From an uncultured Actinomycetes bacterium (GTDB lineage Bacteria > Actinomycetota > Coriobacteriia > Anaerosomatales > CAVRZR01), in assembly GCA_963817255.1 (NCBI GenBank), contig CAWFNT010000004.1, positions 168,001-232,000 on the forward strand: a stretch of DNA of 64,000 bases, in the 5' to 3' direction. The position numbers were made by a program, and so were the translations under genes. Positions within the stretch are counted from its first letter, which is position 1. Each line of letters begins with the position of its first letter. Positions 20,924 through 33,137 of this stretch are shown here, in pieces. Under the pieces are notes generated by a model. That model was not told where the DNA came from. It did no database searches and saw only the letters and a program-made list of their open reading frames with translations.

Positions 20924-21869
20924 ATGGGCTACTCGCGCCCGGCCAATGCAACCGAGAGCGGCGAGCGGATCCACCAGATCCGCGTCGTCCTGTGGGTCGT
21001 CTTGGCGCTCAACGTGTCCGTGGCGCTGGCGAAGATGGCTTGGGGCCTCATCTCGGGCTCTGTCGCCATGCTCGCCGACGGATTCCACTCCATGTTCGAC
21101 GGAGTATCGAACGTTGTGGGGCTCGTCGGCATGGGTATGGCCGCGCGACCCGCGGACCGAGACCATCCCTACGGGCACTCGAAGTACGAGACCTATGCTT
21201 CGGCGGCTATTGGCGCCATGCTCGTCTTCGCCGCGTACAAGGTCGGAAGCGCGGCCGTCGAACGGTTGCGCGGTGGTGGTGAACCGCCAACAGTGACGGC
21301 GATGTCGTTCGCGGTGATGCTCGGGACGCTTACGCGTCAACATCGCAGTCACTCTGTGGGAGCGAAGGGCGGGCAAACGGCTGAACAGCTCGATCCTGAT
21401 CGCGGACGCGAGCCACACGAGTTCTGATGTGCTCGTGAGCCTGGGCGTCATCGTCGGCCTGGTGCTCGTTCGCCTGGGCTATCCGAAAGCCGACGCCATC
21501 GTCGCTTTGTTCGTTTCGGGGGCGATCGTGTTCACCGCTTGGAAGGTATTCAAGGAAGCGAGCGTTACACTCTCCGATGCCGCCCGAATCCCCGCTGCCG
21601 AGATATGTGCGGTCGTGCTCGGGGTGCCTGGCGTCTTGGGCTGCCACAACATCCGCACGCGCGGTTCCGAGGCCGAGATCTATGTGGACATGCACGTCCA
21701 GGTCGATGCATCGAGGACCGTCGCCGACGGGCACCGTATCGTCGAGCTCACCGAGCGGGCCGTTGCGGAGCAATTCGACGCCGTCGCCGACGTGATCGCC
21801 CACCTCGAGCCGTACGATGAGTATCAGGCCGGCAAGACCAGCGAGGAGCAGAGGTCGGGGCTTGTCTGA
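20924..21869 (+). CDS. cation diffusion facilitator (CDF) metal efflux transporter; frameshifted in this assembly
   Basis: Motifs are SGSVAMLADGFHSMFD, ILIADASHTSSDVLVSLGVIVGL and the C-terminal cytoplasmic domain ..NIRTRGSEAEIYVDMHVQVD. ORFs 20897-21427 and 21429-21869 join with a 1-nt correction near 21323-21335. Confidence 0.85.
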
Positions 21870-22846
21870 GCGCTCCGCTCCGCTCGAGCGATCCAGCGAG
21901 CACCGCACCCGCGGCTACCTCCTCGTCGTTCTCGCGGCAGCGTGCTGGGCCACGGGTGGGCTCGCGGCCAAGTGGATGTTCACGCCCGCGGCAGACGTTC
22001 CGGCGGGGTGGCGGGTGCAGCCACTCGGCATACCGATGGACCCTGCGGTGTTGTCGGGTTGTCGCGCGCTCGCAGCCTTCGTGCTGCTAGGAGCCTACCT
22101 GCTCGTCTCGCGGCGGCAGGAGATCGGGGTCACGTTCCGAGCCCTTCCGTTTCTGGCGATCTTCGGAGTCGTCGGACTGGCCGGCGTGCACTACACCTAC
22201 TTCAAGACGATCTCTCTCACCAACGTCGCGACGGCGATCCTCCTCGAGTACCTCGCGCCCATCATCGTCCTGGCCGTGTCGGTGGTACTGTTCCATAAGC
22301 GTGTGACGTGGGTCCTTCCGGCCGGCGTCGCTCTGTCGGTACTGGGCTGCGGGCTGGTGGTCGGAGCCATCGGTGGCGACGGCCTGACCGTCTCCGCCGC
22401 CGGTATCGCATGGGGGCTCGCGTCGGCGGTCCTGTTCGCGACCTACTCCCTCATGGGCACGTACGCTGCGGGCCGGTTCTCCCCGTGGACGCTGCTCTTC
22501 TGGGGCCTCGGATTCGCGACCCTCTTCTGGCTCGTCCTCCTCGGATCGGACGACGTCGTCGCCGTCTTTGGTGACACAAAGGCGCTTACTTGCTGTCGTG
22601 TACGTTGCGGTCGTGAGCACGATCATCCCGTTCGGAGCGTTCCTGACGGCCCTGCACTACATCGAGCCCACCCAAGCGACGATCACGGCCACTCTCGAGC
22701 CGGTCCTTGCCGCGATCGCGGCCTTCGCGATCTTCGGCGAGAAGCTGTCTGTCGGCCAGATCCTCGGCGGGCTACTCGTTATCGCTGCCATCGTTCTCGT
22801 GCAGTCCCGTGGCGCCGAGGCGCCGTCGCTTCCCCCGCAGGACTAG
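21817..22846 (+). CDS. EamA/DMT-family transporter; frameshifted in this assembly
   Basis: About ten hydrophobic helices. ORFs 21817-22929 and 22568-22846 join near 22575-22590 (..VAVFGDT..LLAVVYVAVVSTIIPFGAFLTALHYIEP..). The start is uncertain (ATG 21817 or TTG 21862). Confidence 0.75.
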
Positions 22847-22976
22847 CGGTCGAGTCCCACGCGGGAACGCGCGTGGGCCGGTCCGCTGCCTGCATGAAAC
22901 CTCCACATCGGCGGTATACTATTTGCTAAGAGGCGCCCCTGTTCGGGGCGTGAGGATGCCCTCCCGAGGAGGGGAA

Positions 22977-24374
22977 ATGGAGCTCAGCCAGCGCCCTGAA
23001 ATGAGGCAGCGTGTCACGTTGTCTCCGCAGGTCTATCAGGGCCTCAACATCCTCGCGATGCCGATCGCAGATCTCCAGCAGATGGTCGAAGCTGAGATGC
23101 TCGAGAACCCTGTGCTCGAGCTGGACGAGACAGAGTCCGAGCCCGAAGAGCGTGACGAAGAAGCCCCCGAGACGCCCGAGGAAGAAGAGCGCTCGTGGGA
23201 CGAATGGCTCGACCACTACGACGACCTGGATTCGATGGAGCCTACCGCTCCAAGGGACCCGAATGCCGAGAGCACGAACACCGAGGAGTTCGTCGGCGGC
23301 GTACAGTCTTTCGACGACTACCTGCTCGATCAGCTCGCGATGCTCGATATCAGTGACGACGTGCGGCGCGCGGCCCAGGCCGTCGTAGGCTCTCTTGACG
23401 ACGACGGCTTCTTCCTCGCTTCGCTCAGGGAGGTCGCTGCGCTCGCTGGCGTGTCCGAAGAGGCGGCTCGCGAAGGTCTACGGGTGGTGCAACAGCTCGA
23501 CCCGCCCGGCGTCGGCGCGCGCAACCTTGCGGAGGCGCTGACGATCCAGATGGAGTACCTCAGTCTCGAGGAGCCGGTGCTCGAACGCATCGTGCAGGAG
23601 CACCTCGATGACATCGCAGCGAACCACTACCGCAAGGTGGCCAGAGCGCTCAAGATCGATGAGACCGAAGTCCGCCGTGTCGTGGAGATCCTGAGATCGC
23701 TGAACCCTCGGCCGGCCGGCGCCTTCTCGCCGGGCCCATCGCCCGGCTACATCATCCCGGACGTCACGCTTCGGCGGTTCGGAGAAGACTGGCTGATCAT
23801 CGCGAACAACGAGGCAATCCCGACGCTCAAGGTGAGCCCTCGTTATCGGGCGATGCTTCGAACCGGCTCCGACGCAGACGACGAGACCCGTCGCTACCTC
23901 AAGGACAAGATCCGCTCGGCTGAGTCATTCATCCGGAACGTCGATCGCCGCAAGGACACCGTGACCCGCATCACGCAGATCATCCTCGAGGTGCAGCGCG
24001 AGTTCTTCGAGGACGGCAAGGGGCTCTTGCGCCCGTTGCGTCTGGAGGACGTCGCGGTGGAGATCGGAGTGCATCTCTCGACCATCAGCCGCGGGGTCAC
24101 GGGCAAGTACATGGCCACGCCGTACGGTCTGTTCGAGCTCAAGCACTTCTTCTCGGGCGGCTATCGCACCACGACCGGTATGGATGTCGCGGCGACGAGC
24201 ATCAAGCAAAGGCTCCGCGAGCTCGTGAAGGAAGAGGATCCGATCAAACCGCTGTCTGATCAGCGTCTGGCGGAGTTGCTCTCGGAGGAGGGCGTGACGG
24301 TCGCGCGGAGAACGGTGGCGAAGTACCGAGAGGAACTCAGGATCGATCCCTCCTGGGCCAGGCGCCGCCGATGA
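22977..24374 (+). CDS. rpoN: RNA polymerase sigma-54 factor
   Basis: ATG at 22977 follows GAGGAGGGG. The N-terminal region is MELSQRPEMRQRVTLSPQVYQGLNILAMP, followed by an acidic region II and the C-terminal RpoN box ARRTVAKYR. Confidence 0.95.
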   Translation: MELSQRPEMRQRVTLSPQVYQGLNILAMPIADLQQMVEAEMLENPVLELDETESEPEERDEEAPETPEEEERSWDEWLDHYDDLDSMEPTAPRDPNAESTNTEEFVGGVQSFDDYLLDQLAMLDISDDVRRAAQAVVGSLDDDGFFLASLREVAALAGVSEEAAREGLRVVQQLDPPGVGARNLAEALTIQMEYLSLEEPVLERIVQEHLDDIAANHYRKVARALKIDETEVRRVVEILRSLNPRPAGAFSPGPSPGYIIPDVTLRRFGEDWLIIANNEAIPTLKVSPRYRAMLRTGSDADDETRRYLKDKIRSAESFIRNVDRRKDTVTRITQIILEVQREFFEDGKGLLRPLRLEDVAVEIGVHLSTISRGVTGKYMATPYGLFELKHFFSGGYRTTTGMDVAATSIKQRLRELVKEEDPIKPLSDQRLAELLSEEGVTVARRTVAKYREELRIDPSWARRRR

Positions 24375-25945
24375 CGCCACCGGAGGAATCGCAGCCCCGG
24401 CAGGCGAACGACAACACCGACGAACGTCGCGCCTATCGGGTTCGAGCAACGATGATCATCTCGGCGATGATCATCGCGATAACGCTCATTCCCATCTCTA
24501 CCGACGGGCCGAACTTCGGCCACTTCCTGCACGATCGGGACCTCGCGGTTGCGCTTCAGATGGCGTTGCAGCAGCTCTACCGTCGTGCCTTCTACATCCC
24601 TATCGTGTATGCGGCCTTCGTGTTCGGACGCCGAGGCGGCATCGTCACCGGAGCTGCCTGCTCGATCATCTTCCTGGTCTACGGCATCGTTCGGAACCCC
24701 ACCATGATTCCGGGCAGCCCCAACGAACTCCTCACCGGGATTGGGGCCTTTCTCGAGATAGGCATGTATCTGGCGATCGGCGCTGTCTTCGGGGCGCTCA
24801 GAGACAAGGAAGCGAACCGAACGGCAGACCTGAGCCAGGTCAGCCAGCAGCTCGAGGAGGCCTACAAGAAGCTGGAGGAGCGTGCGATCCAGCTCATCAA
24901 CATTCAGGACTACACCCAGTCGATCCTCCGCTCGATCACCTCCGGAGTGCTCACCGTCGGACCCGACGGGTCGGTCACCACAGCGAATCCCGCCGCAGAG
25001 CGGATGCTCGGCATGTCGGAGTTTGAGATGGTGCCCAAGCCCATCGGCGCGCTCTTCCGCGATGACGGAGGCATCAGTGCCGATGTGTCCAGGGTGCTTG
25101 CCGGCCGAGCGCCGCTCGCGCTGCGCGAGGTGACGCTCGTGACCGCAGGCGGGCGAACCGTTCACGCGCAGGCATCAACGTCGCGCATGCGCGCCGTTGG
25201 CGGACAGATACTCGGCGCGGTCGTGACGGTCGAGGACGTTTCGGACGTGAGGGCACTCACCGATCAACTGATACGTGCCGACAGGCTGGCAGCGATGGGC
25301 GAGCTTACCGCGGGTGTGGCACACGAGGTACGAAACCCCTTGGGCGTGATTCGAGCGTCCGTGCAGCTGCTTGAAGATGCGAAATGCGACGAAGCTCGTA
25401 TCCATGAGGCTGCCGGCATCATCAAGCAGGAGATCGATCGCCTCGACAGGGTCATCAAGGCGTTGCTGGATTTCGGCAGACCCAGCACGCCGACACTCGT
25501 TGCGACCGACGTCGAGTCCGTGCTGGACGACGTTCTCCTGTTCACCACGCGCTTTGCGACCCAGGCGAACGTCGAGATCGAGCGAGTCGTGCAAAGCGAC
25601 CTCCCTCGCGTGGTTGCCGATCCCGACCAGCTCAAACAGGTATTCCTGAATCTCGTCACGAACGCGGTTCAGGCGATGGAGGACACGGGCGGGCACATAA
25701 CGGTGTCCACGAGGAGTGAGGGCGAGTTCGTACAGGTCGACGTCGCGGACGACGGCCCGGGCATCGCGGCATCTGATCTGACCAAGGTCTTCGACCCCTT
25801 CTACTCTCGCCGTTCGGAGGGAACGGGTCTTGGCCTTACCATCGTCCACAGGATCGTGGACGAGCACGGAGGACACATCGAAGTGGAGAGCGGGCATATG
25901 GGTACTCTGTTCAGGGTGTCCCTTCCCGCGTTGATCGAGCAATGA
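24371..25945 (+). CDS. membrane-associated PAS sensor histidine kinase (NtrB/AtoS-like)
   Basis: The start overlaps the rpoN stop (ATGA). There is an N-terminal hydrophobic region, a PAS-like segment, the H-box HEVRNPLGVI, and N/G boxes (NLVTNAVQAM, DDGPGI, GTGLGL). Confidence 0.9.
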   Translation: MTPPEESQPRQANDNTDERRAYRVRATMIISAMIIAITLIPISTDGPNFGHFLHDRDLAVALQMALQQLYRRAFYIPIVYAAFVFGRRGGIVTGAACSIIFLVYGIVRNPTMIPGSPNELLTGIGAFLEIGMYLAIGAVFGALRDKEANRTADLSQVSQQLEEAYKKLEERAIQLINIQDYTQSILRSITSGVLTVGPDGSVTTANPAAERMLGMSEFEMVPKPIGALFRDDGGISADVSRVLAGRAPLALREVTLVTAGGRTVHAQASTSRMRAVGGQILGAVVTVEDVSDVRALTDQLIRADRLAAMGELTAGVAHEVRNPLGVIRASVQLLEDAKCDEARIHEAAGIIKQEIDRLDRVIKALLDFGRPSTPTLVATDVESVLDDVLLFTTRFATQANVEIERVVQSDLPRVVADPDQLKQVFLNLVTNAVQAMEDTGGHITVSTRSEGEFVQVDVADDGPGIAASDLTKVFDPFYSRRSEGTGLGLTIVHRIVDEHGGHIEVESGHMGTLFRVSLPALIEQ

Positions 25946-25961
25946 TCGAGAGGATCATGGG

Positions 25962-27311
<1,350 letters not shown>

Positions 27312-27346
27312 TCGTCCGCCGAACGTCTCGAAAACACCCGGCGCTC

Positions 27347-27362
27347 TGGCACATCGCTTGCA
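27347..27362 (+). promoter_or_regulatory. sigma-54 (-24/-12) promoter, TGGCAC-atcgc-TTGCA
   Basis: Exact match to the TGGCAC-N5-TTGCW consensus, 36 nt after the activator gene stop and 38 nt upstream of the GTG at 27400. Confidence 0.75.
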
Positions 27363-27399
27363 CGTTCGGGCAAAAGGCCTACGCGCACGGGAGCCCCAT

Positions 27400-27762
27400 G
27401 TGACCCGCAAGACTTTCATGAGACTAGCCTCGGCCGTCTTGGGCGGACTCGCCGTCGGCCTGGCGTTCCTCGCGGCCCTGCTGGTGCTCGATTCGGGCGG
27501 GAGTCTCGCCGGTTCCACGGCTGTCACCTCAACTGGCTTCCTCGTTCCCCTCTTGACGGGGGTAGTGGTGGCCGGCGTTGCATGGCTTCTTCTTGCCGAG
27601 GACGAGCCTGACCGCTCCGTTTCGTCGGACCGCGTCGCCCGTTGCGCGGGGTGTGGCCGTCTTGTGCCGACACAGAGAAGGCTCTGTCCGTTCTGCGGCG
27701 CGCAGGAAGGCGCGGAGACGAAAACGGTGTTCGCGTCGCCTTCCAAGGAGTCCGCTCTCTGA
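27400..27762 (+). CDS. small membrane protein with C-terminal zinc ribbon
   Basis: GTG at 27400 follows GGGAG. There are two or three TM helices (LASAVLGGLAVGLAFLAALLVL, FLVPLLTGVVVAGVAWLLLA), then CAGCGRLVPTQRRLCPFCG (CxxC-N10-CxxC). Confidence 0.6.
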   Translation: MTRKTFMRLASAVLGGLAVGLAFLAALLVLDSGGSLAGSTAVTSTGFLVPLLTGVVVAGVAWLLLAEDEPDRSVSSDRVARCAGCGRLVPTQRRLCPFCGAQEGAETKTVFASPSKESAL

Positions 27763-27879
27763 AGCTGACCCCGAGTACAACGCGGACTGAGGATAGGGTT
27801 CATCTGGTCGTTCGAGTGCGCTGAGGGTAGGCTGGCACGTGGCGTATCGGACGAGTGAGAATCAAGGCAGGGATGCATC

Positions 27880-28104
27880 ATGGCTGAGAATCCGGCGGGC
27901 GTCCGCCTCAAGACGGGCGGCATGCACTGCAGTTCGTGCTCAATGCTTGTGGACATGACGTTAAGCGATCTTCCGGGCGTCATTGAGTCGCGCACCGATC
28001 TCGCGAGCGGGATCACGCAGGTGGACTACGACCCCGATGCGGCATCGGTCGAGGACTTCATCGCGGCCATCCGGTCGGTCGGATACGAGGCAGAGCTGGC
28101 CTAG
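27880..28104 (+). CDS. copZ: heavy-metal-associated (HMA) domain metallochaperone, CopZ-like
   Basis: 74 aa with the GMHCSSC metal-binding motif and a ferredoxin-like fold pattern. Confidence 0.85.
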   Translation: MAENPAGVRLKTGGMHCSSCSMLVDMTLSDLPGVIESRTDLASGITQVDYDPDAASVEDFIAAIRSVGYEAELA

Positions 28105-28179: not shown

Positions 28180-28911
28180 TTGGAAGGTTCGGTCGGGTTT
28201 CTCGCCGCGTTCGCCGCCGGCGTTGTGTCCTTCCTTTCGCCCTGCGTCCTCCCGGTCATACCCGGCTACCTGTCGTTCATGACCGGTCTTACGACGAGCC
28301 AGCTCGCCGACCTCGACGACCGTCCGCCGCTCTCGGTCGTGCTCATTCCGAGCCTGCTGTTCGTGTCCGGCTTTTCGCTCGTGTTCGTGGCGCTCGGCAT
28401 CTCGGCGTCCTACCTCGGCGGTCTGCTGATCGAGTACCGCGACATCGTGATGCGAGTCGCGGGTCTCCTGGTCTTCGCCTTTGGCCTGCTCCTGACTGGC
28501 GTGATCAAGGTCCCCTGGCTTTACGGGGAGGCCCGTGTCGGACTCGAACGCTCGCGCTCCTTCGGTCGCGGGGCGGCACTGGTCATGGGGATGGCGTTCG
28601 CCGCCGGGTGGACGCCGTGCGTTGGCCCCATTCTCGCCACGATCCTTGCGCTCGCGGCGAGCAGCGGAAATGCCGCGCGCGGCGCCGCACTCCTGTTCGC
28701 GTACTCGATGGGACTGGCCCTCCCGTTCGTACTGACAGCGGTCCTCTTCGGCCGCATGAGAGGGTTCCTGCGCTGGCTCAGCCGGCATTCTGTCGTGATC
28801 AATCGAGTCGCGGGCGCCACGCTCATGATCCTCGGCGTTCTGATCTTCGCCGGACAGCTCGGCCGACTGGCGGGCTGGCTCACTCGCGTTCTGCCCTCGG
28901 TCCGGGTCTAG
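28180..28911 (+). CDS. ccdA: cytochrome c biogenesis / thiol-disulfide transfer protein CcdA (DsbD family)
   Basis: FLSPCVLPVIPGYLSF and ..GWTPCVGPILATIL motifs, with six TM helices. TTG start follows GGAGGGG. Confidence 0.9.
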   Translation: MEGSVGFLAAFAAGVVSFLSPCVLPVIPGYLSFMTGLTTSQLADLDDRPPLSVVLIPSLLFVSGFSLVFVALGISASYLGGLLIEYRDIVMRVAGLLVFAFGLLLTGVIKVPWLYGEARVGLERSRSFGRGAALVMGMAFAAGWTPCVGPILATILALAASSGNAARGAALLFAYSMGLALPFVLTAVLFGRMRGFLRWLSRHSVVINRVAGATLMILGVLIFAGQLGRLAGWLTRVLPSVRV

Positions 28912-28993: not shown

Positions 28994-31900
28994 ATGGAGA
29001 AGCGTTGGAGGAGGGAGGCCGCGATGCCGAAAGCGAGACGCACGTCCGGAAGCCTCGCCTCCGGCATAGTCAGGATCACCTTCATCGTTGGCAGCATCAC
29101 GGTCGCTGCCGCGCTCATGGTCACGATCGCCGAGTCCTACCGCCTCTCAGCGAGGCAGTCGCAGGAACGAATCGGCGCCTACCTTCAGGTAATGCGCTCC
29201 GAGGTGGCGGCACGGCTGTCCGCAGCGGTGACGCTCAATGATCACGCTGCGACGACCATTCAGGACACGTCCCCTGAACGTGTCACGACCCGCCTGTTGG
29301 CCTCGCAGTACATTGGTGCTGCCGACATGCTAGCGGGCCTCGTGCTTCTCAACGCCGATGGCACCGTCGCGGCCGCCTACCCTGCGCTTCGGAGCCCCTT
29401 TCCGACGGCGGCGGTGGAATTCGCGCGACGGGTCGGTGTGACACAGAGCGAGGTCGGCCACTCCGACAGACCGAACCGTTTGACGTCGGTATGGGTCGCT
29501 CGGCGACTTCGTCGATCCGGCGACACGAGCCAGACGCTCGTTTCGATCGTACGTACCGAGTTCCTCAGTTCCACCGTAAACCGTGTCGCCTCCCGCGCCG
29601 ATCGCCGGTCTGCGGTCGTGATCGATGCAGGCCGCCCCGTCGCCACGGGCGTGCGCGGCCCCATGCTCAGGCTCCCGACTGCCGTGTACGGCGAGCTGTC
29701 CGAAGACGACGTAGGGGCGGTACGCCTGCTCGCGCCCTCAGTCGGCCTCATGCGGGGGCTGTGGTCCCCGGTGGAAGTGCCGTTCGTCGGCGACTGGCGC
29801 CTATTGGTGGTCGAGCCTTCGCAAGCGACGATCCTCTCGTCGCTCCAGGCATCGATACCTACTTTCGTGGTACTGCTGGTCGGCGGAACCATCGCACTGG
29901 GCATCGCTTGGGTCGTCGCGAGGCGTCTCGTGTACCCGCTACGCGAGATCGAGGCAGCGAGCTACGAGGCCGCAAAAGGCGCGCATGTCTCGCCGCTCAG
30001 GCCGGGTCGAGACGACGAGGTGGGGAGGCTAGCCGAGGCCTTCAACGCGGTCGGCCTTCGCCTGAACGCGCTCCAGTACGTCTCGCGACTCCTGGCGGGC
30101 GCCTCGCGGGTCGATCAGGTCCTCGACGCGGTCATCGAGGCGATCGGACATCTTCTGGGGTCGGGTATGGTCGCGATCTACGTGACTGACGACACGGAGC
30201 AATCACTGCAGCTCGCCCGTTCGTCCGGAGGCTTCACACCTCCTCCGGGCCCGGTATTGCGGGCGCACTCAGGACCGTTCGCGCGCGCTCTCGCAACCGA
30301 GTCCGTCCAGACCCCCGCGCCGAACGATCTCCCGATGCATGGTTGGGACATAGACGAAACGCCCTGCCGAGTGCTTGTCGTCCCGCTTATCGCGGCCACC
30401 GAGCAGCTTGGTGTGATCGTCATACTGCAGCATGGGCGTTCGGAGTACTCCGACGCCGAGGTCGAGATGGTCGGTACGTTCGCATCCCAGGCATCCATCG
30501 GAATCACGAAGTCGCGCCTCTTCGAGCGCGAGATAGAGACGCGGCGCGTTGCGGAGCTGCTTCGCGATGTAGCCGAGGAACTCGTCGGTCCGGTGGCCTT
30601 CGGTGATGCACTGGACTCCGTCGGCGTTGTCGTTTCAGGCGCCTTAGCCGGGCGAACGGCGCTCTTCGCCTTCGAGGACCGCGACGCATTGGGGCTGCCC
30701 CCGGCCGAAGACCCGGAGTTGGAGCGGACGATCATCGAACTCGCGGACGCCGCGCTCGAGAGCGGCGGTAGCAGCCGGATCGTGGCACCTGGAACGTCCG
30801 AACAGGCCGACGGCCTTCTCGCTCGATTCGGGGCAGCGCAAGTCATACTCGCGCGCATCGAGCCAGACGAGCCGTATCGAGGTGCGTTCGCTGCGTTCTC
30901 GGCGGAGCCGTCCTTTGGATCGCGCGACGTCGAGGTCGTCGAGGGCATGACCAAGATCGTCACCCTGGCCATCGACAACGCGTACTTCTTCGAGCGTTCG
31001 AGAGTCCGGGCGCGCAACCTCGAGACCATCTTCCGGATCTCCCAAGCCGTCGGGTCATCGCTCGAACTCAACGTGGTCCTGAACCGCGTGCTCGACGTCG
31101 TCCAGATGATCTTCGCGGCGGATGCCGTATCGCTCATGATCTACGACAAGTCGAAACGCGTCGTCACGACCGCCATGGCACGTGGCGCAGTCTCGAACGA
31201 TATCCTCCACCTCGAGGTTGCGCCGGGAGCCGATCTTCCCGGCCGCGTGTTCTCCACGCGAGAGCCGATGATGTTGCGGGATCTCCGCCAGAACGACACC
31301 CCACTGGCGGGATCGGCACATGACCTCGGGCTCAACTCTCTGTTGTCCGTGCCCTTGCTGGCCCGCGGCAGCGCCGTCGGCGTCCTGACCGTCTTCTCGG
31401 AGGTCGCATCCGCGTTCGACGACGAGGACATGGGGCTGCTACAGACCTTCGCCTCTCAGGCCGCCTTGGCCATCGACACGGCGCGCCTGTACAGCAGGGA
31501 GCACGACGTAGCGGAGATCCTTCAGCGGAGCATCCTTCCAGACGAGGTCCCGGAGTTCGACGAGGTCGATGTGGCCACCGCATACCGACCCGCCGGCGAG
31601 GAGGCCGAGATCGGCGGGGACTACTACGACCTCTTCAGGGCGCCCGCAGGCGACATCGTGATCGCGGTCGCTGACGTGTGCGGCAAGGGGGTTGAGGCGG
31701 CGACCAAGACGTCCATGCTGAAGTACTCCGTACGAGCGCTCGTCATTGCAGGTTTCGGTCCGGCCGAGTGCCTGGATGAGGTGAATCGCATGGTTGCGAC
31801 CAAGGGCGACCCGAGCGATATCCTGTCCCTCTGGCTCGGCTTCCTCGACGCCAAGGCGGGCACGTTGCGCTGGGCGAACGGGGGTCACCCGCCGAGCCTC

Positions 31901-32233
31901 ATCTTGCACTCCGGCTCGCGCGAGATCGTCAGGCTCGAACCCACGGGCCCGATCCTCGGTGCGACGACGCAGGTCCGATTCGAGGAAGAGGCAGTCGACG
32001 TGGGTGCCGGCGACACGATCCTGCTCTACACCGACGGAGTCACGGAGACGCGAACGGGGAATAGGTTCTTCGGAGAGGGACGAGTGAGGCGCTCGCTCAG
32101 ATACGGCGGGAGCGCCGAGAACGTTGTGGCGCACCTGTTGGACGCCCTCAAGCGCTTCTATCCGGGCGAGTTGCGCGACGACGTGGCGATCGTTGCCGTG
32201 CGCGTGAAGGACGGCGAGCGTCGTGCAGAGTGA
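28994..32233 (+). CDS. membrane sensor with HAMP, multiple GAF domains and a C-terminal PP2C (SpoIIE/RsbU-type) phosphatase
   Basis: Two TM segments flank an about 230-aa extracytoplasmic region. The HAMP is ..DDEVGRLAEAFNAV... There are three GAF-like blocks. PP2C motifs are GGDYYDL, VADVCGKGVEAA and LLYTDGVTE. Confidence 0.9.
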   Translation: MEKRWRREAAMPKARRTSGSLASGIVRITFIVGSITVAAALMVTIAESYRLSARQSQERIGAYLQVMRSEVAARLSAAVTLNDHAATTIQDTSPERVTTRLLASQYIGAADMLAGLVLLNADGTVAAAYPALRSPFPTAAVEFARRVGVTQSEVGHSDRPNRLTSVWVARRLRRSGDTSQTLVSIVRTEFLSSTVNRVASRADRRSAVVIDAGRPVATGVRGPMLRLPTAVYGELSEDDVGAVRLLAPSVGLMRGLWSPVEVPFVGDWRLLVVEPSQATILSSLQASIPTFVVLLVGGTIALGIAWVVARRLVYPLREIEAASYEAAKGAHVSPLRPGRDDEVGRLAEAFNAVGLRLNALQYVSRLLAGASRVDQVLDAVIEAIGHLLGSGMVAIYVTDDTEQSLQLARSSGGFTPPPGPVLRAHSGPFARALATESVQTPAPNDLPMHGWDIDETPCRVLVVPLIAATEQLGVIVILQHGRSEYSDAEVEMVGTFASQASIGITKSRLFEREIETRRVAELLRDVAEELVGPVAFGDALDSVGVVVSGALAGRTALFAFEDRDALGLPPAEDPELERTIIELADAALESGGSSRIVAPGTSEQADGLLARFGAAQVILARIEPDEPYRGAFAAFSAEPSFGSRDVEVVEGMTKIVTLAIDNAYFFERSRVRARNLETIFRISQAVGSSLELNVVLNRVLDVVQMIFAADAVSLMIYDKSKRVVTTAMARGAVSNDILHLEVAPGADLPGRVFSTREPMMLRDLRQNDTPLAGSAHDLGLNSLLSVPLLARGSAVGVLTVFSEVASAFDDEDMGLLQTFASQAALAIDTARLYSREHDVAEILQRSILPDEVPEFDEVDVATAYRPAGEEAEIGGDYYDLFRAPAGDIVIAVADVCGKGVEAATKTSMLKYSVRALVIAGFGPAECLDEVNRMVATKGDPSDILSLWLGFLDAKAGTLRWANGGHPPSLILHSGSREIVRLEPTGPILGATTQVRFEEEAVDVGAGDTILLYTDGVTETRTGNRFFGEGRVRRSLRYGGSAENVVAHLLDALKRFYPGELRDDVAIVAVRVKDGERRAE

Positions 32234-33074
32234 CGAAGAGACGTTGCAGCACATGACGGTGAGATTGGGAAACATACAAAACATGCCGTACGAGATTCGA
32301 CTCGCCGAGGGACACGGTCCGAGGGCATGCGTCGCCGAGATCAGTGGCGATGTCGACACGAGCGTCGTGCCCGAGCTACGTGTTGCGCTCGGAGAGGCCC
32401 TGGACTCCGGGTGTCGTAACGTCATCCTTGACCTGAAGCGAGTGACGTACGCCGACAGTTCGGCGCTTAGCCTTCTTGTGTGGCTGGATCAGAAGCTTCG
32501 TCCGGTAAGCGGACGCATGGTTCTGACCGGGGCCAACAGGGATGTGACGCGAATCCTCGAGCTCTCCGGCCTCGTGCAGATTGCAGCGAGCGTCATGACC
32601 AGCCCGAACGTCACAGCGGCGCTCGAGGGGCTCGACCTTCCGCCCAAGGCGGTGGATCCGCTGTGGGTCGAGGAGTTGCCGATGCCGGCGAAGGTGGAAG
32701 CGCTCGCAGCCGCGCGCGAGCAGGTGGCGGCGCTCGTCTCCCGGCTGGGCTTGGGTGATGCGGCGCTCTTCGACATCAAGGTAGCGCTGGGGGAGGCCCT
32801 CGCGAACGCGGTCAGGCACGGTTCCCCATCCGACGGGGAGGGCGAGGTCGACATACGCGTGGAAGCCTACCCGGATCGCGTCGTGCTTAGAGTGATCGAC
32901 GCCGGCTGCGGCTTCGATGGCATTCATGCGTGCAGTGGCGATGTGTATGCGTCCGGTGGGCGGGGCGTCATGTTCATGCGAGCCCTCATGGACGGTGTGG
33001 AGTTCACCCCGTCCGAGACCGGCGGCACGACGGTGACACTGGTCAAGCATCGGAGTGCTGCCGCGGCCGAGTGA
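32223..33074 (+). CDS. fused STAS (anti-sigma antagonist-like) and HATPase (RsbW/SpoIIAB-like serine kinase) protein
   Basis: The N-terminal STAS has the phosphorylatable-Ser motif YADSSALSLL. The C-terminal half is ..ALGEALANAVRHG..VIDAGCGFD..GGRGVMFMRALMD.., typical of the anti-sigma kinase HATPase_c_2. It is a single open frame. The likely start is ATG at 32253 or 32283. Confidence 0.8.
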   Translation: MQSDEETLQHMTVRLGNIQNMPYEIRLAEGHGPRACVAEISGDVDTSVVPELRVALGEALDSGCRNVILDLKRVTYADSSALSLLVWLDQKLRPVSGRMVLTGANRDVTRILELSGLVQIAASVMTSPNVTAALEGLDLPPKAVDPLWVEELPMPAKVEALAAAREQVAALVSRLGLGDAALFDIKVALGEALANAVRHGSPSDGEGEVDIRVEAYPDRVVLRVIDAGCGFDGIHACSGDVYASGGRGVMFMRALMDGVEFTPSETGGTTVTLVKHRSAAAAE

Positions 33075-33137
33075 CCGGCCCGCTTCGGGCCCTGTCGTTT
33101 GCTGCTATGCTTCTCGCGGACGGCGAGGGGAGCCCAT

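Follow-up and report, generated by a model that had tools for sequence, protein, structure and literature searches.

Expression of rpoN, the gene that encodes sigma-54, is sigma-54-dependent in the nifU2-rpoN region of Rhodobacter capsulatus. Autoregulation of rpoN has also been predicted in several other classes, and autoregulation of ZraR has been noted (PMC12316311). In Borrelia and Chlamydia, sigma-54 is paired with a single activator, and Actinobacteria are described as being without a sigma-54 system (Francke 2011, PMC3162934). Two surveys hold that Actinomycetota have no working sigma-54, and one of the two proposed that sigma-54 promoters become unreadable at high GC content (PMC3162934; PMC12316311). 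Here we describe a 64-kb stretch of DNA (the window; C4:168001-232000) from a metagenome-assembled genome (MAG) of Anaerosomatales type, Anaerosomatales being an order within Coriobacteriia, Actinomycetota. The assembly consists of four contigs, with 1.64 Mb and 66% GC, and is estimated to be 62% complete. In the window, rpoN, a sensor kinase gene and an NtrC-family activator gene form one tight operon, with a sigma-54-type site (P1) before rpoN and a predicted sigma-54 promoter (P2) between the activator gene and a small gene for a membrane zinc-ribbon protein. Comparative sequence analysis makes it likely that these elements belong to a minimal, self-controlled sigma-54 stress regulon that is conserved across this actinobacterial order.

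With both strands considered, TGGCAC-N5-TTGCW is matched exactly at a single place in the window, P2, which reads ggcgctcTGGCACATCGCTTGCAcgttcggg. The first-pass annotation had claimed P2 as the only full match, and shuffles give an expectation of 0.02. When one mismatch is permitted, P2 is still the only match in the window, with 1.2 expected. The site starts 35 nucleotides past the activator stop codon (27309-27311) and ends 37 nucleotides before the GTG start codon at 27400, and it has the arrangement that characterizes a sigma-54 promoter in sequence, namely GG and GC elements ten bases apart, oriented toward and upstream of a gene. A promoter matrix was built from the sites of relatives, with the sites of this genome excluded, and three shuffled genomes served as background. 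In the genome-wide scan that the annotation had called for, P2 ranked first with 26.8 bits, versus 21.7 bits for the best score in the shuffled genomes, and a site before clpC, described below, was the second-best match.

The sequence TGGCAY-N5-TTGCA lies between the activator gene and the small gene in 20 of 20 loci fetched across the order, and P2 is also present in 35 of 35 loci of an independently fetched set that extend that far. In an alignment anchored on the motif, essentially no conservation extends into the flanking bases, and P2 is therefore best explained as a short functional site. The gene order and P2 are retained in the spanning locus of every relative except one, while the flanks diverge freely. 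The exception (genome G011; locus L117, G011:C7, 6560-6720) is a natural deletion in which P2, the zinc-ribbon gene and ccdA are gone, and the activator gene is followed, after 29 nucleotides, by copZ with its own ribosome-binding site and then by the PP2C-STAS gene region. Because the activator gene of G011 leads straight into these genes, copZ and PP2C-STAS appear to be functionally tied to the operon. Taken alone, P2 is very probably a functional sigma-54 promoter, with a predicted transcript start near 27373, and its order-wide conservation supports the earlier proposal that a genuine target promoter lies directly behind the activator gene.

P1, which reads cGGTATactatTTGCT, is the sole YGGTAY-N5-TTGCW match in the window, where 0.06 matches are expected. 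A T after the GG of the -24 element, as in P1, is found in the Klebsiella nifH promoter. In 37 of the 39 loci that include sequence upstream of rpoN, [TC]GGTAY-N5-TTGCW is found 50 to 77 nucleotides before the rpoN start codon. P1 overlaps a housekeeping-type -10 box (TATACT, 22915-22920), and a good -10 box (TATACT, TATAAT or TATATA) likewise overlaps the site in 34 of the 45 distinct loci over which architectures were counted. Eleven loci have a different architecture: their -24 element, TGGTAC followed by G/C-rich bases, is not a -10 box, the TGG-N9-TTGC spacing is exact, and a separate -10 box (CATAAT or TATACT) is situated 3 to 5 nucleotides upstream. Two further lineages have no sigma-54 element at P1 and still carry the -10 box GGGGATAAT. 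Because of the 11 separated loci and the two lineages with a -10 box alone, we conclude from the comparison that two independent elements are conserved at rpoN, a housekeeping -10 box and a sigma-54 site, which overlap or abut. This arrangement points to autoregulation of the rpoN operon. With a sigma-54 closed complex on P1, both the -10 box and the start site of the housekeeping promoter would be covered, from which we infer that the operon is repressed at rest and, on induction, amplifies itself through the activator.

The leader between P1 and rpoN contains a GC-rich hairpin (Table 1), and an equivalent GC hairpin of different sequence is present 3' of P1 in most relatives; the fold z-score of 22927-22980 is only -1.7. 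Closer to the gene, CCCTCC-cga-GGAGGG (22958-22974) forms a perfect 6-bp hairpin that covers the rpoN ribosome-binding site and could mask translation initiation. The sequence AAYCTCCRC, which contains the anti-Shine-Dalgarno sequence CCTCC, is found 14 to 48 nucleotides upstream of P1 in 12 of the 45 loci, namely the window (22899-22908), L033, L041 (twice), L051, L052, L057, L064, L065, L077, L080, L083 and L118. It is absent at P2 and occurs once at clpC. We rejected it as a promoter element, given that it is limited to 12 loci and that its distance is variable.

The third conserved site is outside the window. The genome contains three exact matches to TGGCAC-N5-TTGCW, which are P2, C2:208494 and C2:175764, and C2:208494 is located 113 nucleotides before clpC. 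TGGCAY-N5-TTGCT precedes clpC in 26 of 29 relatives (loci L120-L149), and a TCGC variant is present in a further two. In every locus, ~45 nucleotides downstream of the clpC sigma-54 site, there is a GGGTATACT housekeeping -10 box, and TGAGT-N7-ACTCA is found just upstream of the site in 21 of the 29 relatives. The latter sequence is the core of the HspR/HAIR operator consensus, CTTGAGT-N7-ACTCAAG (PMC6102357), and an hspR-like MerR gene is located between dnaK and clpB. It does not occur at P1 or P2, and so is not the enhancer of the activator. In the genome under study (G000), the HAIR-like repeat, the sigma-54-type site and the -10 box follow one another in this order within C2:208469-208560, and all three are conserved. 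These sequences suggest sigma-54 control of clpC in this lineage and, more specifically, its combined control by HspR, sigma-54 and sigma-A. As for a HAIR operator before dnaK, this genome has just a degenerate copy, and we set that candidate aside. The clpC site points to a regulon that extends beyond the cassette, toward protein-damage stress. The cassette had been called self-contained; this description holds for the single rpoN and its adjoining single activator gene, but not for the sites, which also occur before rpoN and clpC.

Three further sites in this genome (C2:173513, C2:174889 and C2:175764; locus L150) are no more than putative. They share a strand, span less than 2.3 kb and come after fragments of multi-heme cytochrome genes, in a region with weak coding signal where Pfam gives nothing beyond a heme motif; they are not conserved in the same genus. 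The exact match at C2:175764 precedes an open reading frame (ORF) with a signal-peptide-like start, and the other two are near matches.

The domains and motifs of the protein products are intact, which speaks for the self-controlled regulon. RpoN has the three regions of the sigma-54 family (PF00309, 2e-12; PF04963, 2e-52; PF04552, 2e-56) together with the RpoN box ARRTVAKYR, and scores 409 bits against the NCBI equivalog model TIGR02395, which is above its cut-off of 277. The activator has the receiver domain, the GAFTGA-containing AAA+ domain and the C-terminal Fis-type helix-turn-helix (HTH) domain that define an NtrC-type enhancer-binding protein (PF00072; PF00158, 6e-72; PF25601, the AAA lid; PF02954), and its translation includes the Walker A sequence GESGTGKE. 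The kinase ATG overlaps the rpoN TGA (ATGA), in agreement with the tight unit of rpoN, PAS kinase and GAFTGA activator that was originally noted, and which the Pfam matches and translations bear out. By hydropathy, the kinase has 3 to 4 transmembrane (TM) helices with very short loops, followed by a cytoplasmic PAS domain, and because of these two features it is read as an intramembrane or cytoplasmic sensor.

Neither regulator can be assigned to the Zra, Ato or Ntr equivalog families. The best NCBIfam match of the kinase is AtoS, with 351 bits versus a cut-off of 646, and the activator scores 496 against AtoC versus a cut-off of 714 (AtoSC models, NF008469 / NF008468). The ZraR and ZraS models give 408 versus 760 and 210 versus 479, respectively (NF007689 / NF007688). 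Membership in ZraSR, AtoSC or NtrBC is thus ruled out, since every score is under the equivalog cut-off. Upstream of rpoN, a gene for an EamA-family transporter appears split over two frames (ORFs 21817-22929 and 22568-22846). The EamA proteins of relatives match the first frame to approximately residue 250 and the second frame after that, and as judged from this pattern the split reflects either a frameshift or a misassembly of this MAG.

Table 1. Coordinates of predicted genes and regulatory features in the window.
Feature	Position	Strand	Basis
P1 sigma-54-type site, cGGTAT-actat-TTGCT (GG 22913-14, GC 22925-26)	22912-22927	+	conserved; sole window match
GC-rich hairpin in rpoN leader, GCGCCCC-tgttc-GGGGCGt	22933-22951	+	seen in sequence
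rpoN (sigma-54), 465 aa	22977-24374	+	Pfam AID, CBD, DBD; TIGR02395
Sensor histidine kinase (PAS, HisKA, HATPase_c)	24371-25945	+	Pfam, hydropathy
NtrC-family enhancer-binding response regulator (REC, AAA+ with GAFTGA, HTH_8)	25962-27311	+	Pfam
P2, predicted sigma-54 promoter, TGGCAC-atcgc-TTGCA	27347-27362	+	exact consensus; conserved in relatives; top matrix score
120-aa membrane zinc-ribbon protein	27400-27762	+	two TM helices, acidic linker, cytoplasmic ribbon
CopZ-like HMA metallochaperone	27880-28104	+	Pfam HMA
CcdA/DsbD-type thiol-disulfide membrane transporter	28180-28911	+	Pfam DsbD_TM, DsbD_2; syntenic in relatives
Membrane HAMP-GAF-GAF-PP2C (SpoIIE-type) phosphatase	28994-32233	+	Pfam; syntenic in relatives
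STAS / RsbW-type kinase fusion (STAS-HATPase_c_2), last of conserved block	32223-33074	+	Pfam, synteny
Terminator-like hairpin GGCCCGCTTCGGGCC with T-rich tail	33077-33091	+	consensus scan

The first gene after P2 has a GTG start codon preceded by GGGAG, and is the only certain predicted target of this promoter. The first-pass annotation had described its product as having two or three TM helices and a CxxC-N10-CxxC ribbon. The ribbon stands, and the number of helices settles at two according to both hydropathy and AlphaFold, which places helices at residues 3-32 and 44-66. The ribbon cysteines are arranged as C82-x2-C85-x10-C96-x2-C99, and the four cysteines, P97 and G100 are invariant in 30 homologues, whose motif is CxxCG-x7-WRLCPxCG (the W is not universal). 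The AlphaFold model has a predicted local distance difference test (pLDDT) value of 75 overall and ~88 across the ribbon, with strands at 79-81 and 88-90. The two CxxC knuckles and the modelled small beta hairpin thus correspond to those of a zinc ribbon (Zn_Ribbon_1 / Zn_ribbon_3 / DZR). The protein in the window is under Pfam thresholds, and one homologue matches PF13248 and PF13240. The small protein is present in 37 of 41 related genomes surveyed, which represent 25 families, and database homologues are limited to this clade. Their names are only "zinc ribbon domain-containing" or "hypothetical", which agrees with the earlier statement that the protein has no assigned function.

Transcripts from P2 probably extend into copZ, and a consensus scan of the 117-nucleotide gap between the small gene and copZ revealed no terminator-like site. 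The terminator-like hairpin after the STAS-kinase gene may end the P2 transcription unit; the count of terminator-like sites in the region is at chance level. The gene order in the 20 loci is CDF, EamA, rpoN, kinase, activator, small gene, copZ, ccdA, GAF-PP2C, STAS-kinase and nitroreductase, and in some relatives the small gene and ccdA are separated by inserted genes for a DsbD_2-cupredoxin fusion and for a CopA ATPase with three HMA domains. CsoR-type operators (TACCCC...GGGGTA) are found in every locus in the csoR/CDF region, 2 kb upstream. A CsoR-type operator (TACCC-N-GGGTA) also precedes copZ in seven relatives (L031, L038, L041, L043, L044, L116 and L119), ~600-1370 nucleotides past P2, and one is upstream of rpoN in two lineages (L039, at -93 from P1, and L085:5864-5879). 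These operators before copZ and rpoN suggest that copper-responsive CsoR control and the sigma-54 circuit intersect. In the window, we detected no CsoR-type operator between the small gene and copZ. A lone TGGCAC (27832-27837), 43 nucleotides before copZ and without TTGC at -12, may be a decayed promoter or due to chance. We rejected a second sigma-54 promoter before copZ, given that this site has no -12 element and that relatives have none at this position except for one in L039.

The genome under study has one rpoN and one strong PF00158 match, side by side, and its remaining AAA+ matches are weak. Each of five near-complete relatives, two of which are single-contig genomes, has exactly one rpoN and one activator gene, and these are adjacent. 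We found rpoN in 88 of 92 other genomes of the order, versus 8 of 108 other Coriobacteriia and 12 of 401 genomes sampled evenly from the phylum. Outside Coriobacteriia, Sigma54_DBD matches occur in G267, G268, G270, G281 and G459, which belong to three families. Judged from this sampling, sigma-54 in Actinomycetota is rare but scattered. Another family of Coriobacteriia (locus L155, G147:C1:3328000-3346000) has rpoN followed directly by its only activator gene, whose 680-aa product has no receiver domain and an unassigned N-terminal half; ETF (electron transfer flavoprotein) genes adjoin. Since rpoN and a single activator gene recur there with a different activator, sigma-54 in Coriobacteriia, as far as gene content indicates, comes as compact cassettes of a sigma factor and an activator. 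A full-text search found no paper that pairs Anaerosomatales or OPB41 with a sigma-54 term among the 15 listed of 1,166 matches. The arrangement had been called unusual, and the surveys that deny sigma-54 to Actinomycetota lend weight to that description (PMC3162934; PMC12316311).

Our proposed mechanism begins with the housekeeping promoter, which would supply sigma-54, kinase and activator at a basal level. In response to a membrane, redox or metal signal, the kinase would phosphorylate the activator, and the activator ATPase would then open closed complexes of RNA polymerase and sigma-54 at P2, the clpC site and P1. Unactivated holoenzyme on P1 would block the overlapping housekeeping promoter, such that the operon would be held down at rest and self-amplified upon induction. 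The stress in question is probably copper, thiol or protein damage, because the predicted outputs are a metallochaperone, a thiol-disulfide transporter, the copper ATPase and cupredoxin of relatives, and ClpC.

Binding sites for the activator, which retains its HTH domain, were sought in several ways. The first-pass annotation had suggested that inverted repeats in 27150-27340 might serve as upstream activating sequences (UAS), and we found no such enhancer in this interval. The palindrome AGGTCGA-ac-TCGACCT (27187-27202) was rejected, as it is explained by a conserved peptide, EVELDL, and codon bias. Upstream of P1 and P2 there is no conserved perfect palindrome or shared 8-mer, and no convincing inverted repeat was found before P1. 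No k-mer is common to the P1, P2 and clpC upstream regions within 15 genomes, and the last 90 ntrC codons, where a P2 enhancer would have to lie, exhibit no synonymous-site constraint.

A self-controlled stress regulon is thus to be weighed against several points that count against it and against three other explanations. No enhancer was found before P1, P2 or the clpC site; single sites other than P2 do not beat the best shuffled-genome score; and the inducing signal is judged from gene neighbours only. The remaining points concern P1. Its GG is followed by T instead of C, and the site is at the same time an extended -10 box, so that in most loci it can be read as a housekeeping promoter alone. 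In addition, the predicted sigma-54 start near 22938 lies in the 5' arm of the leader hairpin, and for this reason the hairpin would be found only in the housekeeping transcript. These points are the core of an explanation in which P2 is real, P1 is no more than a sigma-A promoter whose -10 box (TGGTATACT) is of the extended type, the TTGC is part of the initial transcribed or leader sequence, and rpoN is not self-controlled. The coincidence of the -24 element with a good TATAMT box in 34 of 45 loci, the use of the same type of -10 box at clpC, the two lineages that keep the -10 box alone, and a leader hairpin that is intact only if the transcript starts upstream of the predicted sigma-54 start are all in its favor. 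However, the 11 loci in which the exactly spaced sigma-54 element is separate from the -10 box do not fit this explanation, nor does a pattern that occurs once per 64 kb versus 0.06 expected, and we consider it unlikely, if credible.

The second explanation, in which P2 is conserved but silent or marginal, and expression of the small gene and copZ-ccdA is due mainly to rpoN operon transcripts that read through or to housekeeping promoters controlled by CsoR, appears improbable to us. Read-through is plausible in that just 35 nucleotides without a terminator-like hairpin separate ntrC from P2 and that the relative that lost P2 has copZ joined to ntrC, and the CsoR-type operators before copZ in seven relatives would suit control from elsewhere. 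Nonetheless, retention of a 16-nucleotide consensus over ~25 families amid unconserved flanks implies selection, and the cell retains a full sigma-54 and activator for which P2 is the only consensus-grade site. The module might also sense nitrogen or carbon status, in the manner of NtrBC or AtoSC, with copper neighbours that are coincidental. The best NCBIfam matches are indeed to AtoS/AtoC and NtrC, but these are far under the equivalog cut-offs, the matrix scan shows no sigma-54 site before nitrogen or acetoacetate genes, and conservation singles out a membrane zinc-ribbon protein, copZ-ccdA and clpC as targets; this explanation is very improbable. A more elaborate version of the self-controlled regulon is a self-gating switch, in which holoenzyme parked on P1 shuts the housekeeping promoter, such that further sigma-54, kinase and activator would be made only once the activator fires, and the zinc-ribbon protein, as the first product of the P2 transcript, feeds back on the loop-less kinase, much as the small protein MgrB acts on PhoQ. 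By analogy this is conceivable but doubtful. If true, ClpC-dependent proteolysis would be linked to copper or thiol damage at the membrane, in a phylum held to be free of sigma-54.

An actinobacterial order with 66% GC thus retains a full sigma-54 and one activator, together with three predicted promoters that are precisely conserved across many families, and because it does, the GC-content explanation for the absence of sigma-54 would not be general. The predicted regulon, with sigma factor, sensor and activator on one transcript and few targets, would be among the smallest known for sigma-54. It could serve as a natural model for regulon specificity, sigma-factor self-control, and the use of shared DNA by sigma-54 and housekeeping promoters, and it gives an uncharacterised family of membrane zinc-ribbon proteins a regulatory context.

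Among described systems, ZraS/ZraR-zraP of Escherichia coli and Salmonella resembles this locus in having a membrane kinase and an NtrC-family activator in a metal context. There too, a sigma-54 promoter drives a gene for a small envelope-associated protein beside the regulator genes, and the regulator operon is autoregulated (PMC12316311). However, rpoN is outside the Zra operon, and the scores against the ZraR and ZraS models are, as noted, far under their cut-offs. The predicted target here is a two-TM zinc-ribbon protein and not a periplasmic ZraP, and the kinase is without a periplasmic sensor domain. CorSR-curA of Myxococcus xanthus is also a two-component system, one that governs a copper-tolerance cluster of several genes in which more than one promoter and type of regulator act on a single operon (PMC3707914). 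Unlike the genome described here, that of M. xanthus encodes many activators and has rpoN at a separate site. The predicted system would work in the manner of ZraSR-zraP or CorSR.

The Rrp2-RpoN-RpoS system of Borrelia and the CtcB/CtcC system of Chlamydia also combine one sigma-54 with one activator and a very small regulon (PMC3162934). Their hosts are small-genome pathogens, whereas the present ones are free-living, GC-rich actinobacteria whose activator keeps its HTH domain. To our knowledge, rpoN is not in the kinase-activator operon in Borrelia or Chlamydia, and no sigma-54 site has been described before it. With other cases of sigma-54-dependent rpoN expression, the locus shares a sigma-54-type promoter before rpoN and potential feedback on sigma-54 synthesis (PMC12316311). 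It differs from them in that the site overlaps a housekeeping -10 box, that the kinase and activator are predicted to be in the same transcript, and that there is one copy of rpoN. Finally, TGAGT-N7-ACTCA before clpC and the hspR-like MerR gene in a dnaK...clpB cluster recall HspR/HAIR of Streptomyces and Mycobacterium (PMC6102357), although here the operator abuts a sigma-54-type promoter and not a housekeeping one, and the copy at dnaK is degenerate. As predicted from its sequence, the locus is set apart from Zra, CorSR, Ato and Ntr by three features: rpoN shares an operon with the kinase and activator genes, the housekeeping promoter of that operon carries a sigma-54 site, and there is a single activator.

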